52,946 nucleotides of DNA, from the NCBI GenBank assembly GCA_049515535.1, contig JBEKTZ010000012.1, positions 62,001 to 114,946 of the forward strand. The letters are read 5' to 3'. Below, in pieces: positions 2,147 to 50,268 of this stretch. Within the stretch, counting starts at the first letter, position 1. Each line of letters starts with the position of its first letter. Under the pieces are notes generated by a model. It had not been told where the DNA came from. It ran no database searches and was given only the letters and a program-made list of their open reading frames with translations. The stretch comes from Candidatus Aminicenantales bacterium. Its GTDB lineage: Bacteria; Acidobacteriota; Aminicenantia; Aminicenantales; UBA4085. The translations under genes and the position numbers were made by a program.

Positions 2147-3310
2147 TTATGGTCGTATGGGCTTTATATCCTCGAGTAACCTCGAGAAGGCCACAGCCCG
2201 GATTCTCTCGGCCAAACCGAACGTTCGTTCTCCCGCATGGATCACGTCCAGACTCCTCAATTTTAAATCTTTCAAAGCGTTTCTCATGGACGGAGTGAGG
2301 CGGGGCGAGCTGCTCCTCTTGACTTCGAATCCCAGCCGCCATCGACCGCTGACGACCAAAAGATCCAGTTCGCTTCCGGCATGCGTACCCCAAAAATAGC
2401 ATTCTTCAGACCTCGCCCCAAGTTGCCGGATCACCTGGTTGATAACGAAACCCTCCCACGACGCCCCGAGTTTCGGATGCTTTTCGAGGTCCTGCATGCG
2501 GATGATATTAAGAAGGGCGTGGAGAATCCCGCTATCCGTGAGATAGATCTTGGGCGACTTGATCTGCCGCTTGCTGATGTTCTCGTGCCATGGCTGAAGC
2601 TGGGTGACAACCAGCGCCGAAGTGAGCATATCGAGATAGTTCCGGACGGTCGTGTCGGCGACGCCGAAAGAGCGGGCAAATTCCGAGGAATTCCAGATCT
2701 GGCCGTGATAATGGGCCAGCATGGTCCAAAATCGGCGCAGAGTCGTCGATCGGATATTGATGCCAAGCTGAGGCAGATCTCTTTCCAGGAATGTCCGAAT
2801 GAAGCCGCGTCGCCATTCATCGCTCGCGGCGGTCGTTCGAGCCAGATAAGCCCTGGGAAATCCTCCTCTCAACCATAAGCGCGGGTGATGTATAACGCCG
2901 ACTTCATCCAGGGCCAGGCTTTTCAGTTCATGGTAGATGATCCGGCCGGCGAGCGTTTCGGACCCCTGACGAAGAAGCTCGGGCGAGGCGCTTCCCAAGA
3001 CGAGAAACCGGGCGGCGGGGCGGGGTCTATCGACCAGCACTCTCAACACCGGAAATAGGCCCGGTAACCGCTGGATTTCGTCGATCACGACGAGGCCCTT
3101 GAGTCCTTTGAGAGCGAGCATCGGATCGCCTAGCCGTGCTTCGTCTTCGGGATTCTCGAGGTCGAAATAATGAGCAGGCCCCCGCAGTTGGGCTACAAAC
3201 GAGCGGGCCAGGGTGGTCTTCCCGACCTGTCGTGCGCCGATGATGCCGACGATGGGATTCCGGGCGATGAGCCCCCGGAGAGTCTTGATTTCTCTTGGAC
3301 GGTCTATCAT
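2147..3310 (-). CDS. AAA_14 / DUF4143-type ATP-binding protein
   Basis: Walker A GARQVGKTT, Walker B VIDEIQR, LGSAS, SETLAGR, GGFP, KSPKIYLTDSG, C-terminal ELDL..GFEVK nuclease-like motif. Confidence 0.9.
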   Translation of the reverse strand: MIDRPREIKTLRGLIARNPIVGIIGARQVGKTTLARSFVAQLRGPAHYFDLENPEDEARLGDPMLALKGLKGLVVIDEIQRLPGLFPVLRVLVDRPRPAARFLVLGSASPELLRQGSETLAGRIIYHELKSLALDEVGVIHHPRLWLRGGFPRAYLARTTAASDEWRRGFIRTFLERDLPQLGINIRSTTLRRFWTMLAHYHGQIWNSSEFARSFGVADTTVRNYLDMLTSALVVTQLQPWHENISKRQIKSPKIYLTDSGILHALLNIIRMQDLEKHPKLGASWEGFVINQVIRQLGARSEECYFWGTHAGSELDLLVVSGRWRLGFEVKRSSSPRLTPSMRNALKDLKLRSLDVIHAGERTFGLAERIRAVAFSRLLEDIKPIRP

Positions 3311-3625: not shown

Positions 3626-3627
3626 GT

Positions 3628-3654
3628 AAAGCCCGGGTCCCCGGCCGCCGTGGA
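3628..3654 (+). repeat. Partial (3' half) copy of the ~65 bp palindromic repeat family
   Basis: AAAGCCCGGGTCCCCGGCCGCCGTGGA matches the 3' half of the copies at 37411, 44766(-) and 50269. Confidence 0.8.
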
Positions 3655-3696
3655 CTTCGAATCCAAAGGTCGGGGGTTCAAATCCCTCCGGGCGCG
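3651..3696 (+). pseudogene. 3' half of tRNA-Arg(UCG) (att-like fragment)
   Basis: Anticodon arm TGGA-CTTCGAA-TCCA (anticodon TCG 3657..3659), T-arm GGGGG-TTCAAAT-CCCTC, acceptor strand CGGGCGC+G; D-arm and 5' acceptor strand absent. Confidence 0.88.
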
Positions 3697-3901
3697 CTCT
3701 TTCTTTTATCCCCCATAGAGGAGGCTTGTCGGGAACTGAGGATCCGGCTCCTCGTCTTCCCCCCTCGAACCCCTAAGCCGCAGGCCTTTGCGGAGCGGCC
3801 GAATCAATTCAGAGCCGGATTGGAGCTTATCCTCAATCCAACGCGTCAATAGAGAGGTGGAGGCGTTTAGGAAGTTGACGGATTGCCGGATTTTGGCTTA
3901 T
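3679..3901 (+). repeat. Direct repeat copy B
   Basis: Near-identical to 1..234. Confidence 0.97.
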
Positions 3902-3904
3902 ACT
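3875..3904 (+). promoter_or_regulatory. Putative sigma70 promoter for the 4010..10953 operon, at the 3' end of the repeat
   Basis: TTGACG-N18-TATACT; copy A has TTGACG-N18-TATTAT at 208..237. Confidence 0.55.
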
Positions 3905-4009
3905 GATTTCTATTAGCGGGCAGGAAGAGGCGCTGATAGGGTTCGAGTGGCGAGGCATAAAAAGCGGAAAACGCATGGCCGGTAACGAACAAAACAGAGT
4001 TCGGAGCGC

Positions 4010-4705
4010 ATGATCATGGAGAAGAAGACGGGTTCCTTCATCCGGGTCTATTGTCCGGAATTAATGGACACGATCACGCCGGGAGAATGGACGGATTGTC
4101 CTTTTTATCAAGGACAGAAGCTCGATTTTGCAAACACGGAAGAGGCCCTCAAACAGATCTTCCGCTGCCACGTTCAGTGCGACTGCAAAATCCTGTATCA
4201 GTATTACGACGGGGGCAAGCTCGTGCAGAAAGTCGAGGAGTCCATCGAGGACCAGGAGAGCCTCCGGCAAATCCTCTCTGTGGTGATGAAACAGGCGAAG
4301 AAGTCCGACGACAAAAGAGCGAAGAGAGTCCTCATCGTCGACGACGACCTCGATTTTCTGGAGATCCACTCCACCGTCCTGAAGAACAGGGGCTACGAAG
4401 TCATCACCGCCCAGAGCTCAAAGGAATGCCTGGAAAAGCTGGAAAAGGTCCGGCCCGACCTGGTCGTTTTGGACGTCATGATGGAACAGTTCAACGCCGG
4501 CTTCGAAGTGAGCAAGAAGATCAAGAAGAAATACCGCGACCTGCCCGTGATTCTCCTGACGTCCATCGGGCTTCAAACGGGCCTGGAATTCTCCTCCAAC
4601 GCCGACGTCTTGGAGGTCACGGGCGCCGACCTTCTTCTCGATAAGCCCGTCAGCCCCGAGGTCTTCGTCGCCGAGATCGAAAAATTGACCGCGGCCAAGG
4701 ACTAG
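4010..4705 (+). CDS. Response regulator: Cys-rich N-terminal domain plus C-terminal receiver, no DNA-binding domain
   Basis: REC motifs VLIVDDD, VVLDVMME, LLTS, DKP; N-terminal ~90 aa with five Cys (YCP..DCP..CHVQCDC). Confidence 0.85.
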   Translation: MIMEKKTGSFIRVYCPELMDTITPGEWTDCPFYQGQKLDFANTEEALKQIFRCHVQCDCKILYQYYDGGKLVQKVEESIEDQESLRQILSVVMKQAKKSDDKRAKRVLIVDDDLDFLEIHSTVLKNRGYEVITAQSSKECLEKLEKVRPDLVVLDVMMEQFNAGFEVSKKIKKKYRDLPVILLTSIGLQTGLEFSSNADVLEVTGADLLLDKPVSPEVFVAEIEKLTAAKD

Positions 4706-4727
4706 CGGACAGAGATCGCTGATTTCC

Positions 4728-6815
4728 ATGGACATTCTCAGCATCTCCGACACAAGATGCCGCAAATGCTACCGCTGCGTCCGGGATTGCCCCACCAACG
4801 CCCTGAAGATCGACAAGGGCACGGTCAAGCGCATCTGGAGCCGGTGCATTCTTTGCGGGATCTGCTATCGGCATTGTCCCCACGATGCCGTGAGCGCCCA
4901 TACCGGCGTCAAGCGTGTCCAGAAACTTCTCGACTCCGGCCAGAAGGTCGTCGTCTGCCTGGACCCCACGTTTCCGGCGGTCCTGGACCGGGGCACGCCC
5001 GGCCAGCTCGTCACCGCCCTCAAGAAGCTCGGCTTCTCCGAGGTCTGGGAGACCGCCGTCGGAGGGGAGCTGGTGGCCAAGGCCTATGATTCCTGGATCC
5101 GCCGACATCCGGAGTCGTCTTGGATTTCTTCGTTCTGCCCGTCGCTCGTTTATTATATAGAAAAGTTTGTGCCTCATTTGGCCAGCCGACTCATGCCGAT
5201 TGTTTCTCCGATGATTGCCTGCGGCCTGGCGGTCAAACGCCTCAGGGGGGCCGAGACAAAAGTCGTTTTTGTCGGGCCCTGCATTTCCAGGATCTGGGAG
5301 CGCATGGACCGTATCGGGAAGCAGGCCATCGATTATGTCTTGATCTACCACAACATCACGACCCTTCTCGAGGCGAGGGGGATCGACCGTGAAGCCCAAG
5401 AGCCGTCGGAGTTCGACGGTCCGCCGAGCAGCCTGGGACGGATCCTGAGCTTTTCCGGAGGTATGAGCAGGTGCGCCGGCTTTGATCAGGACCTCCTGAG
5501 CCTGGACCACGTGGTCGAGTCCGGAGCCGAGGAGGCCATGCGGGCCGTGAGGCAGCTCCAAGAGGGAAAGATCCGCTCCCAGTTCCTCGACCTGTTGTTC
5601 TGCCAAGGCTGCATCAACGGCCCGGCGACGGATAAAAAAATCTCGGGCCCCAGCCGAAAGCAGATCGTCGTGAACTACATCAAAGCCCAGGACAAGCCGA
5701 GACCGGCCGAGAAAAGAAATGACCTCAAGGCGCTGGATCGTCTGGATTTCTCCAGGAGATTCGCGGCCCGGGACGTCTCCGTGCCCGACCCCGCGGCCGC
5801 GGAGATCGAGGCCATACTGAACCAGCTCGGGAAGGCCTATCCCAATCAGAACTTGGACTGCGGGGCCTGCGGTTATAGTTCCTGCTGGGAGAAGGCCAAG
5901 GCCGTCGTCCAGGGCCTGGCCGAAACGGAAATGTGCTACCACTACCTCCTGGAGAGTCTCCAGGGCCTTTATTCGCGCCTGGAAAAGTCCCACGAACAGC
6001 TCAAGAGCTCCCATGAAGAGCTGGAGAAGGCCCAACGGCAGCTCATCCAGACCGAGAAGATGGCTTCTCTCGGGCAGCTGGCGGCCGGCGTCGCCCATGA
6101 GCTGAACAACCCCATCGGGACGATCATGATGTTCAGCCGGGTCATGCAGCGGGAGATGGATCAGAACAACAAGTGGCAGAAAGATATCAACCTCGTCGTC
6201 CAGGAAGCGGACCGGGCGGCCAAGATCGTCAAAGACCTGCTGAGTTTCGCCAAGGAGACCAAGATCCGGCCGGGACTCATCGCCATCAACCGGGTCATCG
6301 AGGAAGCCCTCTCCCTCCTAGTCAAGCAGTCTCTCTTCCACAACATCGAGGTGGCCACTCATCTCGACCCGTCGCTCCCGACGACCTTCGCCGATCCGGA
6401 CCTTCTGAAGCAGGTCTTTTTCAATATCATCCTGAACGGCGCCCAGGCCATGGACGGTCGAGGAGTCCTGACCGTCAAGAGCCTCAGGGTCGACGACGGC
6501 CGCAAGATCGAGATCCGGATCGAGGATACGGGCAAGGGGATCCCCGAGAAGCACATCCCCCGGCTCTTCGACCCGTTCTTCACGACCAAGGAGAAGGGGA
6601 CGGGGCTCGGCCTGGCCCTGGTCTACAGCATCATCTCCAAGCACAAGGGTGTGGTCTCCGTAGAGAGCCAGCTGGGAAAAGGGGCTACGTTCATCATCCT
6701 TTTGCCCGTCCTCGGCCAGGACGAATGGAACAAGAGCGAGGGCCCGGTCGAGGAGCTGAAGGACGCTCCCGAAGGAAAGAACCATGAAAGCCAGCGGAAA
6801 GATCTTATTGGTTGA
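4728..6815 (+). CDS. [FeFe]-hydrogenase-like (group C/HydS-type) sensor histidine kinase: 2x[4Fe-4S], Fe_hyd-like domain, FeS domain, HisKA, HATPase
   Basis: CRKCYRCVRDCP and CILCGICYRHCP; H-cluster-like motifs SSFCP, GPCISRIWE, DLLFCQGCING; DCGACGYSSC..EMC; H-box AHELNNP; DTGKG, FDPFFTTK, GTGLGL. Confidence 0.88.
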   Translation: MDILSISDTRCRKCYRCVRDCPTNALKIDKGTVKRIWSRCILCGICYRHCPHDAVSAHTGVKRVQKLLDSGQKVVVCLDPTFPAVLDRGTPGQLVTALKKLGFSEVWETAVGGELVAKAYDSWIRRHPESSWISSFCPSLVYYIEKFVPHLASRLMPIVSPMIACGLAVKRLRGAETKVVFVGPCISRIWERMDRIGKQAIDYVLIYHNITTLLEARGIDREAQEPSEFDGPPSSLGRILSFSGGMSRCAGFDQDLLSLDHVVESGAEEAMRAVRQLQEGKIRSQFLDLLFCQGCINGPATDKKISGPSRKQIVVNYIKAQDKPRPAEKRNDLKALDRLDFSRRFAARDVSVPDPAAAEIEAILNQLGKAYPNQNLDCGACGYSSCWEKAKAVVQGLAETEMCYHYLLESLQGLYSRLEKSHEQLKSSHEELEKAQRQLIQTEKMASLGQLAAGVAHELNNPIGTIMMFSRVMQREMDQNNKWQKDINLVVQEADRAAKIVKDLLSFAKETKIRPGLIAINRVIEEALSLLVKQSLFHNIEVATHLDPSLPTTFADPDLLKQVFFNIILNGAQAMDGRGVLTVKSLRVDDGRKIEIRIEDTGKGIPEKHIPRLFDPFFTTKEKGTGLGLALVYSIISKHKGVVSVESQLGKGATFIILLPVLGQDEWNKSEGPVEELKDAPEGKNHESQRKDLIG

Positions 6816-7191
6816 TGACGACCCCGATTTTCTGGACATGCACAAGGCCGTCCTGCAGAACCATGGCTATGACGTGCTCACCGCGACGAGCGGGCAGGAG
6901 GGGCTCGAGCGCGTCCGGGCGGAGATGCCGGATCTCATCATCCTGGACCTCATGATGGAGAAGCACGACGCCGGCTTCTCTTTCACCAAAACGGTGAAGA
7001 CCGACCCGCTGTTCAGGAAGATCCCCATCCTCATGGTGACGTCCGTGGCCGGGGTCACCGGATTCCGCTTCTCCCTGGAAGAGGACGGGTATTGGATGAA
7101 GACCGACGATTTCCTGGACAAACCCGTCATGCCGGAGGTCCTCCTGGAGCGGGTCGATAAACTCCTGAGCAAGCGAGAAGAGGGACAGTGA
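6784..7191 (+). CDS. Single-domain response regulator
   Basis: ILLVDDD, IILDLMME, MVTS, DKP; overlaps both neighbours. Confidence 0.92.
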   Translation: MKASGKILLVDDDPDFLDMHKAVLQNHGYDVLTATSGQEGLERVRAEMPDLIILDLMMEKHDAGFSFTKTVKTDPLFRKIPILMVTSVAGVTGFRFSLEEDGYWMKTDDFLDKPVMPEVLLERVDKLLSKREEGQ

Positions 7192-8666
7192 ACGCGCCAA
7201 CCAAGATTCTGGTCGTCGACGATGAGCTGGGGATCCGGGAGGGATGCCGCCGCGTCCTTGCCGAGGAAGGATACGACATCGACCTGGCCGAGGACGGGAC
7301 GGTCGGACTCCAAAGGGTCCAGGAGAAGTCCTACGACCTCATCCTGGTCGACCTCATGATGCCGGGCATCGGAGGCCTGGACCTGATCAAAAAGATCTAC
7401 GAGATCGACCCCGAGATCATCCTCGTCGTCATCACCGGGTATGCGACCATCGAGACGGCCGTCGAGGCGACCAAGCGGGGGGCCTATGACTATCTGCCGA
7501 AGCCCTTCACCCCGGAAGCCCTGGCCGTCCTGGTCAAGAGGGGGATCGAGAAACGGGAGCTGCGGCTCGAGGCCCAAAGACTCTACCACGAACGCGAGCA
7601 GAGGCTCCTCGAGCTGGCCGGCGAAAAGAGCCGTCTCCGCAGCATCATCGGCTGCATGGCCGACGGCGTTCTGGTCACCAACCTGGAGCGCCAATTGGTC
7701 CTGTGGAACGCCTCGGCCGTGAGGATGCTCAGGCTCAGCGGCACGGACGAGCTCGGGAAGGTTATGGACCATTACCTCAAAAACCGCGCCCTCATCGAAT
7801 CTCTTGACCGGATCCTGGGTTCGAAGGACGAAAACTTCTCGATGATCGGCCAGGAGATCCAGACGGATAACCCGAAGTCGGTGCTGATGGCCCAGATGGC
7901 CCCCGTCCGGGACGAACAAGGCCGACTCCTCGGGGCCGTCACGGTCATCCGGGACATCACGAAGCTTAAGGAGATCGAGACGATCAAGTCCCAGTTCGTC
8001 TCGATGGTCGCCCATGAGCTCCGCTCGCCGCTGGCGGCGATCGAAGGCTGGCTGGGTGTCGTGCTTTCCGGGGAAGCTGGCGGTGACGAGGAGCAGAGGC
8101 GGAAATGGCTGCTGCGCGCCAAAGAGCGGGCCAACTCCCTGCTGGCCCTCGTCCAGGACCTCCTGGAGATCAACAAGATCGAGGCCGGGAAGGTCGCCCA
8201 GAAAATGGAATCCGTCCAGGTGACCGACGTCATCGGCAAGATCGTCGAATTCTTCAAGCCCGAAGCCGAACGGCACCATGTCTCGCTCCAGATGAAGCCG
8301 TCCGTCCCGCTGCCGGCCATTCAGGCCGACATCCAGGACATGGAGAAGCTCTTTACCAACCTCGTCAGCAACGCCATCAAATACAACGTGGAGAATGGCT
8401 CCGTCTCGATCGAAACGTCCCTGGATGCCCATTTCGTCGGCATCCACATCCGCGATACGGGCGTCGGGATAGCCCCGGCCGACCTGCCGCGGATCTTCGA
8501 CGATTTCTTCCGGGTCGAGAACAAGAGGACGGACAGGATCAGCGGGACCGGCCTGGGGCTGACGATCGCCAAGAAGATCGTGGACTCCCACTTCGGCCAT
8601 ATCGAGGTCGAGAGCCGTCCGGACCGAGGAAGCACGTTCTCCGTGTACCTCCCTTACAAGAAATGA
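7188..8666 (+). CDS. REC-PAS-histidine kinase hybrid
   Basis: N-terminal REC (ILVVDDE, VDLMMP, ITGY, PKPF), PAS (MADGVLVTN..WNASA..RDIT), H-box AHELRSP, NAIKYN, DTGVGI, GTGLGL. Confidence 0.92.
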   Translation: MNAPTKILVVDDELGIREGCRRVLAEEGYDIDLAEDGTVGLQRVQEKSYDLILVDLMMPGIGGLDLIKKIYEIDPEIILVVITGYATIETAVEATKRGAYDYLPKPFTPEALAVLVKRGIEKRELRLEAQRLYHEREQRLLELAGEKSRLRSIIGCMADGVLVTNLERQLVLWNASAVRMLRLSGTDELGKVMDHYLKNRALIESLDRILGSKDENFSMIGQEIQTDNPKSVLMAQMAPVRDEQGRLLGAVTVIRDITKLKEIETIKSQFVSMVAHELRSPLAAIEGWLGVVLSGEAGGDEEQRRKWLLRAKERANSLLALVQDLLEINKIEAGKVAQKMESVQVTDVIGKIVEFFKPEAERHHVSLQMKPSVPLPAIQADIQDMEKLFTNLVSNAIKYNVENGSVSIETSLDAHFVGIHIRDTGVGIAPADLPRIFDDFFRVENKRTDRISGTGLGLTIAKKIVDSHFGHIEVESRPDRGSTFSVYLPYKK

Positions 8667-8688
8667 ACGAAAGGCGCAAAGAACGGAC

Positions 8689-10953
8689 ATGACTCCCGCC
8701 GCGGAACATCAGTTGAACGAGATCTTCAGAAAGGAGCGTCTGGCGCCGGGCATCGCTCTTTTCGAGGTCCATACGCCCCCCATCGCCCGGACCGTTCTGG
8801 CCGGCCAGTTCGTCGTCGTTCGCGCCGATGATTATGCGGAGCGGATCCCCTTGACCGTGGTCGACCGCAACCTCGAGAACGGGACGATCACCCTCATCGT
8901 CCAGATCGTCGGCCTGTCCACGCGAAAAATGGAACAGCTTCAGGTCGGAGACACGTTTCTCGACGTCATCGGACCTCTCGGCAAGCCGACGGAGGTCCGT
9001 AAGGCCGGAACCGTCGTCTGCATCGGCGGGGGCGTCGGCGTCGCGCCCGTCTACCCCATCACCAAGGCCTTCCGTGAGTCCGGCAACCGGATCATCTCCA
9101 TCATCGGCGCCCGGAACAAGGAGATGATCATCCTGGAAAAGGAGATGCGGGCCGTAAGCGATGAGCTTTTCGTGACCACGGACGACGGCACCGCCGGCCG
9201 CCACGGGTTCGTGACCGACGAGCTCCGGCGGCTCGTTGCCGAAAAAGTGCCGATCGACCTCGTGGTTGCCATCGGTCCCGGAATCATGATGAAGGCCGTG
9301 TGCGATTTGACCAGGAAAAGCGGCGTCTCGACGATCGTCAGCCTGAACTCCCTGATGGTGGACGGGACGGGAATGTGCGGCAGCTGCCGGATCACCGTGG
9401 GCGACCAGATGAAATTCGTCTGCGTCGACGGCCCCGAGTTCGACGGCCACCTTGTGGATTTCCAGGAACTCCTCAAGCGCTCGGAAATGTACAAGCGCGA
9501 GGAGCATCGGGCCATATGGGACCATGAGTGCCGGCTCTCGGCCGCCGAGAAAATGCTGGAAAAGGCCAACAAGCGGGAGGCCATGCCGAAGCAGGACCCC
9601 AAGTTTCGGGTCCAAAACTTCAACGAGGTCGCCCTGGGCTACACCAAGGAGCGGGCTATGCGCGAAGCCTCGCGCTGCCTCGCTTGCAAGAAGTCGCCCT
9701 GTATAGCCGGATGCCCCGTCGATATCGACATCCCGGGTTTCATCGCGCTCATGCGGCAGGGCGATTTCATCGGGGCCATCCACAAGATCAAGGAGAAAAA
9801 CAGCCTGCCGGCCATCTGCGGACGCGTCTGTCCGCAGGAGGTCCAGTGCGAAGCCTTGTGCGTCCTGTCCAAGAAAGGCCAGCCCATCGCCATCGGCCGC
9901 CTGGAACGATTCGTGGCCGACTACGAGTTCCAGCAAGGCGACATCCGGATGCCGAAGTGCCCAAACCCGACGGGGAAGAAGGTCGCCGTCATCGGGGCCG
10001 GCCCGGCGGGCCTGACGGCGGCCAGCGACCTCATCAAAATGGGGCACGGCGTCACGGTCTTCGAGGCCCTTCACAGGCCGGGCGGCGTCCTGGTCTACGG
10101 CATTCCCGAGTTCCGTCTGCCCAAATGGATCGTCCAGCGCGAGAGCGAATATATCGCCAAGCTGGGAGCCGAGATCCGGGTCAGCCAGGTCGTTGGGACA
10201 TCCTTCACCATCGACGACCTTCTCAAGAACGGCTATGACGCTGTGTTCATCGGGACCGGCGCCGGCCTGCCGCACTTCATGAAGATCCCCGGCGAGAACC
10301 TCAACGGGGTCTACTCGGCCAACGAGTTCCTCACCCGGGTGAACCTCATGAAGGCCTACCTGTTTCCCGAATTCCATACGCCCGTCCACTATGGGCGCAA
10401 CATCGCTGTCGTGGGCGGCGGCAACGTGGCCATGGATTCCGCCCGGACCTCGCTCCGCCTGGGGGCCGAGAACGTCTATCTGATCTACCGCCGGGCGAGA
10501 GAGCAGATGCCGGCCCGCGAGGAAGAGATCGAGAACGCCTTCGAGGAGGGCGTCCAGCCGCGCCTGCTGACGACACCCATTCGCATCCCGGGGAACGAGC
10601 GGGGCTGGGTGAAGGGGATCGAGTGCCTCGAGATGGAGCTGGGCGAGCCCGACGAATCGGGCCGCCGGCGGCCCATCCCCAAGAAAGGCTCGGAACACGT
10701 CATCGATGTCGATATGGTCATCATGGCCATCGGTCAGGGTGCCAATCCCTTGCTGACCTCGGCGACACCCGATTTGGCGCTCACCAAGAACGGGAACATC
10801 GTCGCCGACGAGGCCACGGGCAAGACCTCGAAAAAGGGCGTCTTTGCCGGCGGCGATATCGTCACGGGCGCAGCCACGGTCATCTCGGCCATGGGCGCGG
10901 GCAGAAAAGCGGCTAAGGCGATCGATGAGTATTTGAAAAACGGTCAGTGGTGA
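8689..10953 (+). CDS. nfnAB: Fused NfnA-NfnB electron-bifurcating NADH-dependent ferredoxin:NADP+ oxidoreductase (PyrK-like + GltD-like)
   Basis: NfnA-like ERIPLT, GPLG, GGGVG, MVDGTGMCGSC..CVDGPEFD; NfnB-like RCLACKKSPCIAGCP, ICGRVCPQEVQCE, GAGPAG, YGIPEFRLP, GGGNVAMD, YRR, GGDIVTG. Confidence 0.9.
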   Translation: MTPAAEHQLNEIFRKERLAPGIALFEVHTPPIARTVLAGQFVVVRADDYAERIPLTVVDRNLENGTITLIVQIVGLSTRKMEQLQVGDTFLDVIGPLGKPTEVRKAGTVVCIGGGVGVAPVYPITKAFRESGNRIISIIGARNKEMIILEKEMRAVSDELFVTTDDGTAGRHGFVTDELRRLVAEKVPIDLVVAIGPGIMMKAVCDLTRKSGVSTIVSLNSLMVDGTGMCGSCRITVGDQMKFVCVDGPEFDGHLVDFQELLKRSEMYKREEHRAIWDHECRLSAAEKMLEKANKREAMPKQDPKFRVQNFNEVALGYTKERAMREASRCLACKKSPCIAGCPVDIDIPGFIALMRQGDFIGAIHKIKEKNSLPAICGRVCPQEVQCEALCVLSKKGQPIAIGRLERFVADYEFQQGDIRMPKCPNPTGKKVAVIGAGPAGLTAASDLIKMGHGVTVFEALHRPGGVLVYGIPEFRLPKWIVQRESEYIAKLGAEIRVSQVVGTSFTIDDLLKNGYDAVFIGTGAGLPHFMKIPGENLNGVYSANEFLTRVNLMKAYLFPEFHTPVHYGRNIAVVGGGNVAMDSARTSLRLGAENVYLIYRRAREQMPAREEEIENAFEEGVQPRLLTTPIRIPGNERGWVKGIECLEMELGEPDESGRRRPIPKKGSEHVIDVDMVIMAIGQGANPLLTSATPDLALTKNGNIVADEATGKTSKKGVFAGGDIVTGAATVISAMGAGRKAAKAIDEYLKNGQW

Positions 10954-11074
10954 ACGCGAGCGCCAAGCCTATTTTTTAGCCTGGTCCGCGTCGACACCTG
11001 CTTCAGGCGGCCGAGCCGGGGCCTGCCGGCCATTCGCGGGGGGCGCGCGTCTTGCCTGCCGTCCGCCCTCATAT

Positions 11075-45812: not shown

Positions 45813-45816
<4 letters not shown>
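44893..45816 (-). CDS. REC-GGDEF diguanylate cyclase (WspR/PleD-like)
   Basis: ILIAEDD, LDWNMP, DLDHFK.IND.YGH, RxxD I-site RDYD, RYGGEEF; ATGA overlap with the upstream kinase. Confidence 0.92.
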
Positions 45817-50243
<4,427 letters not shown>

Positions 50244-50268
50244 GACTCCCCTCCTATTCACGAAGATT

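Follow-up and report, generated by a model that had tools for sequence, protein, structure and literature searches.

A hydrogenase-derived sensor kinase and its relay genes are conserved beside a fused NfnAB in Aminicenantes

A five-gene operon in an uncultured peat Aminicenantes bacterium (Candidatus Aminicenantales bacterium, assembly GCA_049515535.1; metagenome-assembled, 3.45 Mb in 32 contigs, 94% complete) joins the genes of a two-component phosphorelay with a hydrogenase-like sensor to a gene for a fused NfnAB. The stretch of DNA analysed, here called the window, is 52,946 nucleotides (nt) long (contig JBEKTZ010000012.1, positions 62,001 to 114,946 of the forward strand), and positions below are counted from its first letter. 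Open reading frame (ORF) calling and Pfam searches place five + strand genes, g1 to g5, which fill positions 4010-10953. We regard it as probable, albeit modestly so, that they encode a phosphorelay which senses redox state through iron-sulfur (Fe-S) clusters and is dedicated to an Nfn of specialised role, with a hydrogenase-derived sensor that most likely lacks the di-iron site. Gene content, conservation, co-occurrence, the failure to find maturases, the active-site substitutions and the ancestry are established directly.

The operon opens with g1 (4010-4705; 231 residues), which carries an orphan Cys4-His domain in front of a receiver (Response_reg, the only part recognised by Pfam), and continues after a 22-nt gap with g2 (4728-6815; 695 residues), a hydrogenase-like Fe-S sensor histidine kinase identified by Pfam, NCBIfam and alignment to HydA1. 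A 32-nt overlap leads into g3 (6784-7191; 135 residues), a single-domain receiver in which Pfam detects Response_reg only, and a 4-nt overlap into g4 (7188-8666; 492 residues), a second kinase with the order Response_reg, PAS, HisKA, HATPase_c and a receiver of the NtrC/NtrX type (Pfam, NCBIfam). After another 22-nt gap, in which a scan found no terminator, follows g5 (8689-10953; 754 residues), the fused NfnA-NfnB, where NCBIfam and matches to chains of known structure delimit an NfnA-like FAD/NAD/2Fe-2S part followed by Fer4_20 and Pyr_redox_2. The earlier, sequence-only reading had described five co-directional genes with these overlaps and gaps, and ORFs and Pfam confirm that layout. It had also reported receivers devoid of an output domain and a window devoid of hydrogenase genes, and both observations hold: neither Pfam nor NCBIfam detects a helix-turn-helix (HTH) or sigma-54 domain in the three receiver proteins, no conserved DNA-binding regulator appears among 47 flanking ORFs of relatives at six loci, and Pfam on the called ORFs finds neither a catalytic hydrogenase nor HydEFG in the window, the same being true of the source genome apart from g2.

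The linkage of Nfn to the relay cassette is solid at the level of gene order. All six loci of the genome collection with enough flanking sequence (L011, L013, L014, L015 and those of genomes G207 and G144) keep the five genes in the same order, down to a sensor identity of 61%, and two further loci cut by contig ends agree as far as they can be read. Among 20 loci from metagenome assemblies, each of the 11 that extend beyond g4 has NfnA(B) next, the other nine ending earlier; these 11 include the source contig and several duplicates of the genome loci. A sample of 151 genomes of the class shows that Nfn as such is widespread, with NfnB homologs in 130 genomes at E <= 1e-150. A fused Nfn ortholog in a single frame (at least 74% identity, no stop) is present in only eight of the 151, and in all eight the sensor kinase lies 3.95-4.04 kb upstream on the same strand. 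Loss of conservation of the nfnAB adjacency had been named beforehand as a possible refutation of the whole idea; with the adjacency kept in 6/6 and 11/11 informative loci, the idea stands on that point.

The fused Nfn is a dedicated paralog, since all 11 genomes that carry the cassette keep a separate NfnB homolog outside it (58-63% identity), with an adjacent NfnA-like match in each of the five carriers examined. In the source genome, a redox cluster on another contig (C3:114000-125000, read as L092:3265-13389) holds a NuoE-like gene, a NuoF-GltD fusion of 1028 residues and a NuoG-like molybdopterin subunit of 779 residues, and continues with unfused NfnA and NfnB genes that are convergent with a class I fumarase gene. 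In four related loci (L011, L095, L100, L105) the fumarase gene is convergent to the five-gene operon instead, which suggests a rearrangement in the source genome. Taken across the clade, three features travel together: an altered sensor pocket, a Cys4-His domain on the upstream receiver, and the dedicated fused Nfn.

Nfn enzymes balance ferredoxin, NADH and NADPH by electron bifurcation and yield NADPH. The g5 product aligns with NCBIfam NF009414 over positions 2-751 of 752 at a score below the curated cut-off (1078.8 bits, cut-off 1103), and is matched above cut-off by TIGR01316 (607.7 bits, cut-off 471.75) and by NF004862 (392.4 bits, cut-off 220). Residues 294-754 align with the whole length of the Thermotoga maritima chain 4ylf_B (chain residues 3-463, 597.4 bits), and the N-terminal part with 4ylf_A (residues 8-273, 270.7 bits) and with the Pyrococcus chain 5jca_S (residues 11-282, 321.8 bits). 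D225, C230, C233 and C245 of the NfnA part, which we take to be the ligands of the [2Fe-2S] cluster, are invariant in seven orthologs, as are eight Cys and E388 in the NfnB part. These matches point to an enzyme of the NADH-dependent ferredoxin:NADP+ oxidoreductase type, a predicted bifurcating transhydrogenase. A prediction of the complex of NfnAB with full-length g1 scored 0.00, a value that counts neither for nor against binding.

The sensor g2 has an architecture that, judged from its motifs, is that of the putative sensory hydrogenases. Pfam finds two Fer4 domains, Fe_hyd_lg_C (PF02906) at residues 73-299 (135.5 bits), an FeS domain (PF04060) at 375-403, HisKA and HATPase_c. The translation begins with two copies of CxxCxxCxxxCP (C11-C21 and C40-C50), the motifs of two [4Fe-4S] clusters, and bears further on an exact Cx2Cx4Cx16C motif (C378-x2-C381-x4-C386-x16-C403). 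The latter is present in all 45 loci that reach that far in a motif table of 46 related loci, which together with the window comprises 47 sequences (nine of the Nfn-linked clade and 38 others). HisKA starts at residue 448, straight after this C-terminal cluster motif, and no PAS domain is matched in g2. Two N-terminal clusters, the C-terminal Cx2Cx4Cx16C and the loss of Cys299 are given as marks of the group C and D enzymes, with Met353 replaced by Gly in TmHydS, in PMC8163306. The scaffold of g2 is classed as sensory because it shows these marks.

The H-domain of g2 was compared by alignment with the HydA1 chain 8a6t_A. All four H-domain cysteines are in place, C137, C185, C292 and C295 aligning with those of the TSCCP, MPC and CxxxC motifs. 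The pocket around them is altered. In g2, TSCCP reads SSFCP, which retains the cluster-ligand Cys and replaces the proton-transfer residue Cys299 by Phe (Phe136); MPCIGKKFE reads GPCISRIWE, with Met353 changed to Gly and Lys358 to Arg (Arg188); and ACPGGC reads FCQGC (FCQ-GC when aligned), with both Cys retained at a spacing one residue shorter. SSFCP, with its Phe at 299, and Arg at the Lys358 position occur in all nine sequences of the Nfn-linked clade. Cys is found at position 299 in none of the 47 sequences compared, and Lys358 is retained in 37 of the 38 other loci, the exception (L053) coming from a genome without HydG. Lys358, which we take to be K228 in CrHydA1 numbering, binds the distal cyanide (CN) ligand of the [2Fe] subcluster. 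PMC9516953 describes K228 as extremely conserved and its variants as blocking H-cluster assembly.

The distribution of maturation genes is consistent with this picture. In the source genome g2 is the only match to PF02906, and HydF, HydG and HydE give no match above the curated cut-offs (TIGR03918, TIGR03955 and TIGR03956). Searches for HydE and HydF covered the source genome and those for HydG all 11 carriers (G000, G207, G144, G453, G475, G495, G491, G479, G467, G401 and G402), of which the first three come from a sample of the phylum, six from the class sample, and two are the genomes behind loci L015 and L011. HydG is above cut-off in none of the 11. Two carriers are single-contig or chromosome assemblies, and both G453 and the chromosome behind L015 are negative. 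In the phylum sample, an even set of 401 genomes, 60 have a match to the g2 sensor at E <= 1e-20 and 57 have HydG above cut-off. Among the 32 non-carriers whose best sensor match reaches E <= 1e-50, HydG is present in 28, the remaining four being G030, G060, G324 and G339 (67% complete and holding a fragment); these counts are descriptive, the genomes being related to one another and metagenome-assembled. The pattern is consistent with an Nfn-linked clade of altered pocket that lives without the maturation machinery. Because the maturases were not found and the pocket is altered, an H-cluster in g2, and hence direct sensing of H2, is unlikely. The sequence-only reading had left redox and H2 side by side as candidate signals; the H2 half fares poorly against HydEFG not found in the source genome, HydG in 0/11 carriers, and the Lys358Arg and Cys299Phe substitutions, and a plain redox signal fits better.

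Another hydrogenase-like protein occurs in the carrier G207 (L047:15431-17148). It has 425 residues with Fer4, Fe_hyd_lg_C and PF04060 domains and no kinase or PAS domain, and is preceded by a HATPase_c protein of 147 residues, so that the pair resembles the M2e (group D) layout in a genome without HydG. Weak matches similar to it (24-30% identity) are present in 13 of 16 sample genomes of the same order, and HydG in none.

More distant relatives of the sensor tell of a different setting. Homologs with 31-41% identity adjoin true hydrogenase genes, HydEFG or a sigma-54 regulator of the NtrC type, and some 20 loci share a core of sensor kinase, receiver and receiver-(PAS)-kinase, mostly behind a second Fe_hyd_lg_C gene. 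In the complete genome G139 the order runs from a NuoF-GltD fusion (1080 residues) through a true HydA (573 residues; PF02906 at 316 bits plus the small-subunit domain) to a receiver, the sensor kinase and a receiver-kinase. In G027 the homolog lies between HydF with two radical-SAM genes and an NtrC-type regulator, and NuoEF-like genes bound this pair on the side away from HydF. Judged by identity, and in a quick tree of Acidobacteriota homologs (no reference-group members included), the nearest outgroups have as their partner an NtrC-type sigma-54 regulator composed of receiver, AAA+ and HTH_8. In the same tree the Nfn-linked clade is monophyletic (Shimodaira-Hasegawa-like approximate likelihood-ratio support, SH-aLRT, of 100) and sits on the longest internal branch (1.01 changes per column). 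Its sister, with a support of 98 but possibly through a long-branch artefact, is the pair from G030 and G060 (L050/L053), also without HydG. Since the distant homologs keep the hydrogenase link, the cassette is best seen as an offshoot of hydrogenase-linked sensor systems; it looks like a descendant of the cassettes of sensory [FeFe]-hydrogenase and histidine kinase found in other Acidobacteriota. Partnership of homologous relays with a hydrogenase or a transcription factor elsewhere had also been named as grounds for refutation. It is found among the distant homologs only (31-41% identity), and we take it as a sign of origin and not as an argument against the Nfn link.

The only carrier outside the class of the others is G144 (family f52; a 5.2-Mb genome with 4% contamination), in which a complete cassette with 61-77% identity lies on an 11-kb contig (L048). 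This could reflect horizontal transfer or a binning error.

HisKA and HATPase_c score above cut-off in g2 and g4, and Response_reg in g1, g3 and g4. The translations contain the kinase motifs AHELNNP and AHELRSP and the receiver motifs DDD...LD(V/L)MM...TS...DKP, all conserved in the alignment, which we take to represent the H-box His, the acidic pair, the phospho-acceptor Asp, the Thr/Ser and the Lys. The best matches of the g2 kinase core are AtoS/ZraS (NtrB-like), and the g4 receiver has its best matches in NtrX/NtrC/AtoC; with the receivers of the NtrC-type regulators that partner the outgroup kinases it shares 35-42% identity. For the g4 kinase core the closest types are PnpS/PhoR/WalK, and for the receivers of g1 and g3, paralogous to each other (42-46% identity), they are RpaB/PhoB/PleD/DivK. 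From these family-level matches and the outgroup partners, phosphate would pass from g2 to the receiver of g4, whose own kinase would then supply g3 and g1.

The N-terminal part of g1 is specific to the clade. Residues 1-100 give no Pfam or NCBIfam match, the receiver occupying 107-223, and hold an orphan domain of about residues 10-95. It contains five Cys, four of them (C15, C30, C53 and C57) with a conservation of at least 90%, and an invariant H54. The domain matches only eight representative clusters among 1.84 billion proteins, and in the phylum sample occurs in three of the 401 genomes, the same three that carry the cassette; the ESM Atlas gave no usable match. One of the eight clusters, P0133, is a weak match on a repeat protein and was taken as spurious. 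The predicted local distance difference test score (pLDDT) of the domain is about 57-66 in the full-length model and averages 72.9 when it is modelled alone. Comparison of this last model with known structures yielded nothing convincing, the best VIA-align Z being 4.3 and Foldseek giving no match at E <= 0.001, and no DNA-binding fold was recognised.

What we infer from these observations is which ligand is sensed, in what order phosphate is transferred and how the relay is coupled to Nfn. The sensor of the Aminicenantes clade has most likely lost the di-iron part of the H-cluster, which would leave a chain of four [4Fe-4S] clusters: two at the N-terminus, the cubane of the H-domain, and the C-terminal Cx2Cx4Cx16C cluster beside the dimerisation helix of the kinase. 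Such a chain could come to equilibrium with ferredoxin or a different donor of low potential and thereby gate the kinase, so that g2 would signal how reduced the low-potential electron pool (ferredoxin, NAD(P)H) is, and not H2. The g2 kinase would then phosphorylate the NtrC-type receiver of g4, and the g4 kinase in turn the PhoB/DivK-like receivers of g3 and g1. The relay would be tied to the fused NfnAB paralog, through which ferredoxin, NADH and NADPH exchange electrons. This tie would be made either by phosphorylated g1 or g3 acting protein on protein or through an unlinked regulator. Candidate outputs are thus phosphorylated g1 or g3 acting on Nfn and an unlinked regulator, to which the possibility that Nfn is itself the input module of the sensor has to be added.

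Several points weigh against the redox-sensing relay as set out here. Neither a DNA-binding nor any other recognisable output came to light, and, as far as the models go, the N-domain of g1 shows no recognisable fold, though it might still bind DNA. The proposed order of phosphotransfer draws on family resemblance. A mechanism based on a cluster chain is not established even for true HydS proteins, and what the C-terminal cluster does in sensory [FeFe]-hydrogenases is disputed, according to PMC13104023. The exchange of Lys for Arg is conservative and Arg might still hold the cyanide ligand. All genomes are metagenome-assembled, the source genome being 94% complete, so that the absence of maturases means that they were not found. 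The source genome also encodes [NiFe]-hydrogenase large subunits and HypA elsewhere, and H2 could act on the sensor indirectly.

Four other explanations have to be set against the same evidence. If Nfn were the input, the fused NfnAB would dock on the ferredoxin-like domain at the N-terminus of g2 and feed it electrons, the kinase would read the NADPH/NADH/ferredoxin balance through Nfn in place of the lost H-cluster as the source of the signal, and the output would be an unlinked regulator. We consider this unlikely, though it deserves to be taken seriously. It would account for an operon without an output domain and for a fused Nfn whose gene closes a signalling operon and accompanies the altered sensor in every carrier; the fused copy is not the sole Nfn-type gene of the cell, given the unfused NfnB homolog in 11/11 carriers, and some distant cassettes adjoin a module of the GltD/NfnB type, fused to NuoF beside HydA. 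The contact between g5 and g2 is, however, purely hypothetical, and a highly conserved fusion with every cofactor ligand fits a normal enzyme equally well. Its stronger version, which makes a bifurcating enzyme the sensory head of an Fe-S kinase, supplying electrons after loss of the H-cluster to a signal relayed through small receivers (one of them with the orphan Cys4-His domain) and with no transcription factor involved, seems to us rather doubtful; if true, the cell would read the ferredoxin/NADH/NADPH balance directly, by a new kind of metabolic sensor. The clusters of g2 might alternatively respond to oxygen or oxidative stress, the relay raising the supply of NADPH through Nfn for defence when O2, reactive oxygen species (ROS) or NO destroys or oxidises them. 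Precedents exist in NreB and FNR, whose Fe-S clusters react in this way. Four predicted [4Fe-4S] sites without a route to an H-cluster would suit such a role, Nfn does yield NADPH, and the holders of the sequence are metagenomes of peat, groundwater and sediment, habitats with oxic-anoxic shifts. Nothing in the operon, however, points specifically to oxidative stress, neither the conserved unit nor its flanks contain genes for peroxidase, rubrerythrin or thioredoxin, and we judge the explanation distinctly unlikely.

A genuine H2 sensor, tuning Nfn to H2 pressure, would require that g2 acquires its H-cluster by another route or that the maturase genes are missing from the bins. None of the four H-domain Cys and none of the accessory cluster motifs has been lost, the relatives are hydrogenase-linked, and H2 is physiologically relevant to an organism with [NiFe] hydrogenases. 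HydG was nevertheless detected in 0/11 carriers, single-contig genomes included, the source genome yielded neither HydE nor HydF, and Arg at the Lys358 position accompanies a bulky Phe at 299 in 9/9 clade sequences, variants of that Lys being described as blocking cofactor assembly in PMC9516953; on this balance the explanation is quite improbable. The adjacency could, finally, be meaningless, nfnAB simply happening to lie downstream of an unrelated signalling operon. The linkage is indeed known from sequence alone, and the promoter and terminator calls are consensus matches. The 22-nt gap between g4 and g5 without a terminator, the order kept in every informative locus, whereas the flanks of the window match no locus of a relative, and the fixed spacing from the kinase in 8/8 fused paralogs of the class sample make this explanation barely credible.

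Transcription of the operon would start from a putative sigma-70-like promoter (TTGACG-18 nt-TATACT, 3875-3904, + strand), a sequence match from a consensus scan lying about 105 nt upstream of g1. Both hexamers are kept in 11 of 12 aligned upstream regions, the -35 box having diverged in L048. To the left of the -35 box the sequence of the relatives is unrelated, similarity starting exactly at that box, and contigs of related strains begin to match the window at 3872-3874. No sigma-54 promoter pattern matches near the operon, and the count across the window is below chance. Between promoter and g1 no conserved leader RNA structure is apparent, with compensatory changes in 0 of 21 predicted pairs. 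An upstream ORF of 12 codons, MAGNEQNRVRSA, lies at 3975-4013 (+), its TGA overlapping the annotated ATG of g1 (ATGA); the frame is kept in most close relatives, although not in L015. A second ATG of g1 at 4016 may be the real start because GGAG stands 9 nt before it. The operon ends in a weak terminator-like hairpin of five stem pairs with a T run at the stop codon of g5 (10948-10976, +; scan). In one sediment study, two RNA libraries contain contigs with some 92% identity to the window, which together span all four gene junctions (g1/g2, 3874-4939; g2 through g5, 5235-8856; g4/g5, 8407-9437). They give a weak hint of expression of the cassette, since carry-over of DNA is possible and a contig is no proof of a single transcript.

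The genes that flank the operon in the window match none of the loci of relatives. A direct repeat of about 290 nt occurs at 1-242 and 3626-3912, its left copy extending some 52 nt beyond the start of the window (L124). The copies are 93% identical overall, with parts at 97-100%, and hold a tRNA-like remnant and the operon promoter. They bracket an island of 3.4 kb with a GC content of 50.7%, against 60.6%. Its genes are one for an aldehyde dehydrogenase (486-1844) and, on the - strand, one for a DUF4143 AAA ATPase (2147-3310). TTGACG-18-TATTAT is preserved in the left copy of the repeat, and this copy of the relay promoter may drive the + strand genes of the island. A DNA contig of run X3 has the same junction. 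The tRNA-like sequence (3631-3694, +) scores 25.2 bits against an Rfam gathering threshold of 29, and ARAGORN does not call it; in all probability this remnant served as a site of integration. In G207 (L047:7-4012) the end of the operon is convergent with NuoG-like, Oxidored_q6 ([NiFe] small-subunit type) and HypA genes, so that a [NiFe]-hydrogenase cluster adjoins the five-gene operon there. Far downstream in the window lies a gene for a hybrid kinase of 1482 residues (45813-50261, -) with PAS, HisKA, HATPase_c, two receivers and Hpt, with no evident link to the cassette.

How putative sensory [FeFe]-hydrogenases transmit their signal is unsettled, and the Nfn-linked clade amounts to a natural experiment on that question. 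The same sensor scaffold survives in it without detected maturases, carries substitutions in keeping with a lost di-iron site, and is bound to one defined enzyme. A small soluble set of proteins (sensor kinase, second kinase, two receivers and the enzyme) is suited to testing whether hydrogenase-like domains can act as plain redox sensors, and equally to testing direct control of a flavin-based bifurcating enzyme by signalling. Literature searches turned up no regulation of this kind for Nfn. The earlier statement that no characterised system has this layout also stands, in that none was found in the literature on Aminicenantes hydrogenase kinases, on links between NfnAB and two-component systems and on Aminicenantes Nfn, judged superficially.

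Among known systems, g2 is closest in build to TmHydS (group C, M2f) and TamHydS (group D, M2e), with which it shares two N-terminal [4Fe-4S] clusters, the H-domain, Cx2Cx4Cx16C and the lack of Cys299, and with TmHydS also the Gly in place of Met353. It differs from the group C (M2f) HydS proteins in having no PAS domain, HisKA/HATPase_c following directly on the C-terminal cluster, and from HydS in general in the change of Lys358 to Arg, the Phe at 299 and one residue fewer between the last two H-domain Cys. Unlike HydS, moreover, it resides in genomes without detected maturases (searched for HydG in all 11 carriers, for HydE and HydF in the source genome) and, in the source genome, without another [FeFe] hydrogenase, and its neighbour is NfnAB and not a group A hydrogenase, a neighbour seen in distant relatives such as locus L076. 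HydDB describes its group C1, 'Histidine kinase-linked (putative)', as possibly sensing H2 with its role undetermined (Table 1 of PMC5037454). As in that group, the hydrogenase-like domain of g2 is linked to a histidine kinase and the distant Acidobacteriota homologs lie in hydrogenase loci, but the clade adds active-site changes, maturases that were not found, a Cys4-His receiver and a dedicated Nfn. The regulatory [NiFe] system HoxBC/HoxJ/HoxA (group 2b) likewise couples a hydrogenase-derived sensor to a two-component kinase, and its output is a DNA-binding regulator of hydrogenase genes; it belongs to another family with another metal site, whereas the g2 operon encodes no DNA-binding output and binding of H2 by g2 is doubtful. 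Eukaryotic Nar1/NARFL has the H-domain fold and keeps the Fe-S Cys with no di-iron site and no HydEFG, functioning in cytosolic Fe-S assembly without a kinase fusion, and g2 is likened to it by description alone. The enzyme g5 resembles T. maritima NfnAB (4ylf) and Pyrococcus furiosus NfnI (5jca) in the full-length matches of both halves and in its invariant cluster ligands, the family of the fused form being NF009414 (PRK12778), against which g5 scores below cut-off, and departs from the T. maritima and P. furiosus enzymes in being a single polypeptide, encoded by the last gene of a phosphorelay operon and accompanied by an extra unfused NfnB homolog. Kinase-linked hydrogenase-like sensors are thus already known, and what the literature did not yield is the form described here, maturase-less and altered in its pocket, joined by an orphan domain and dedicated to Nfn.

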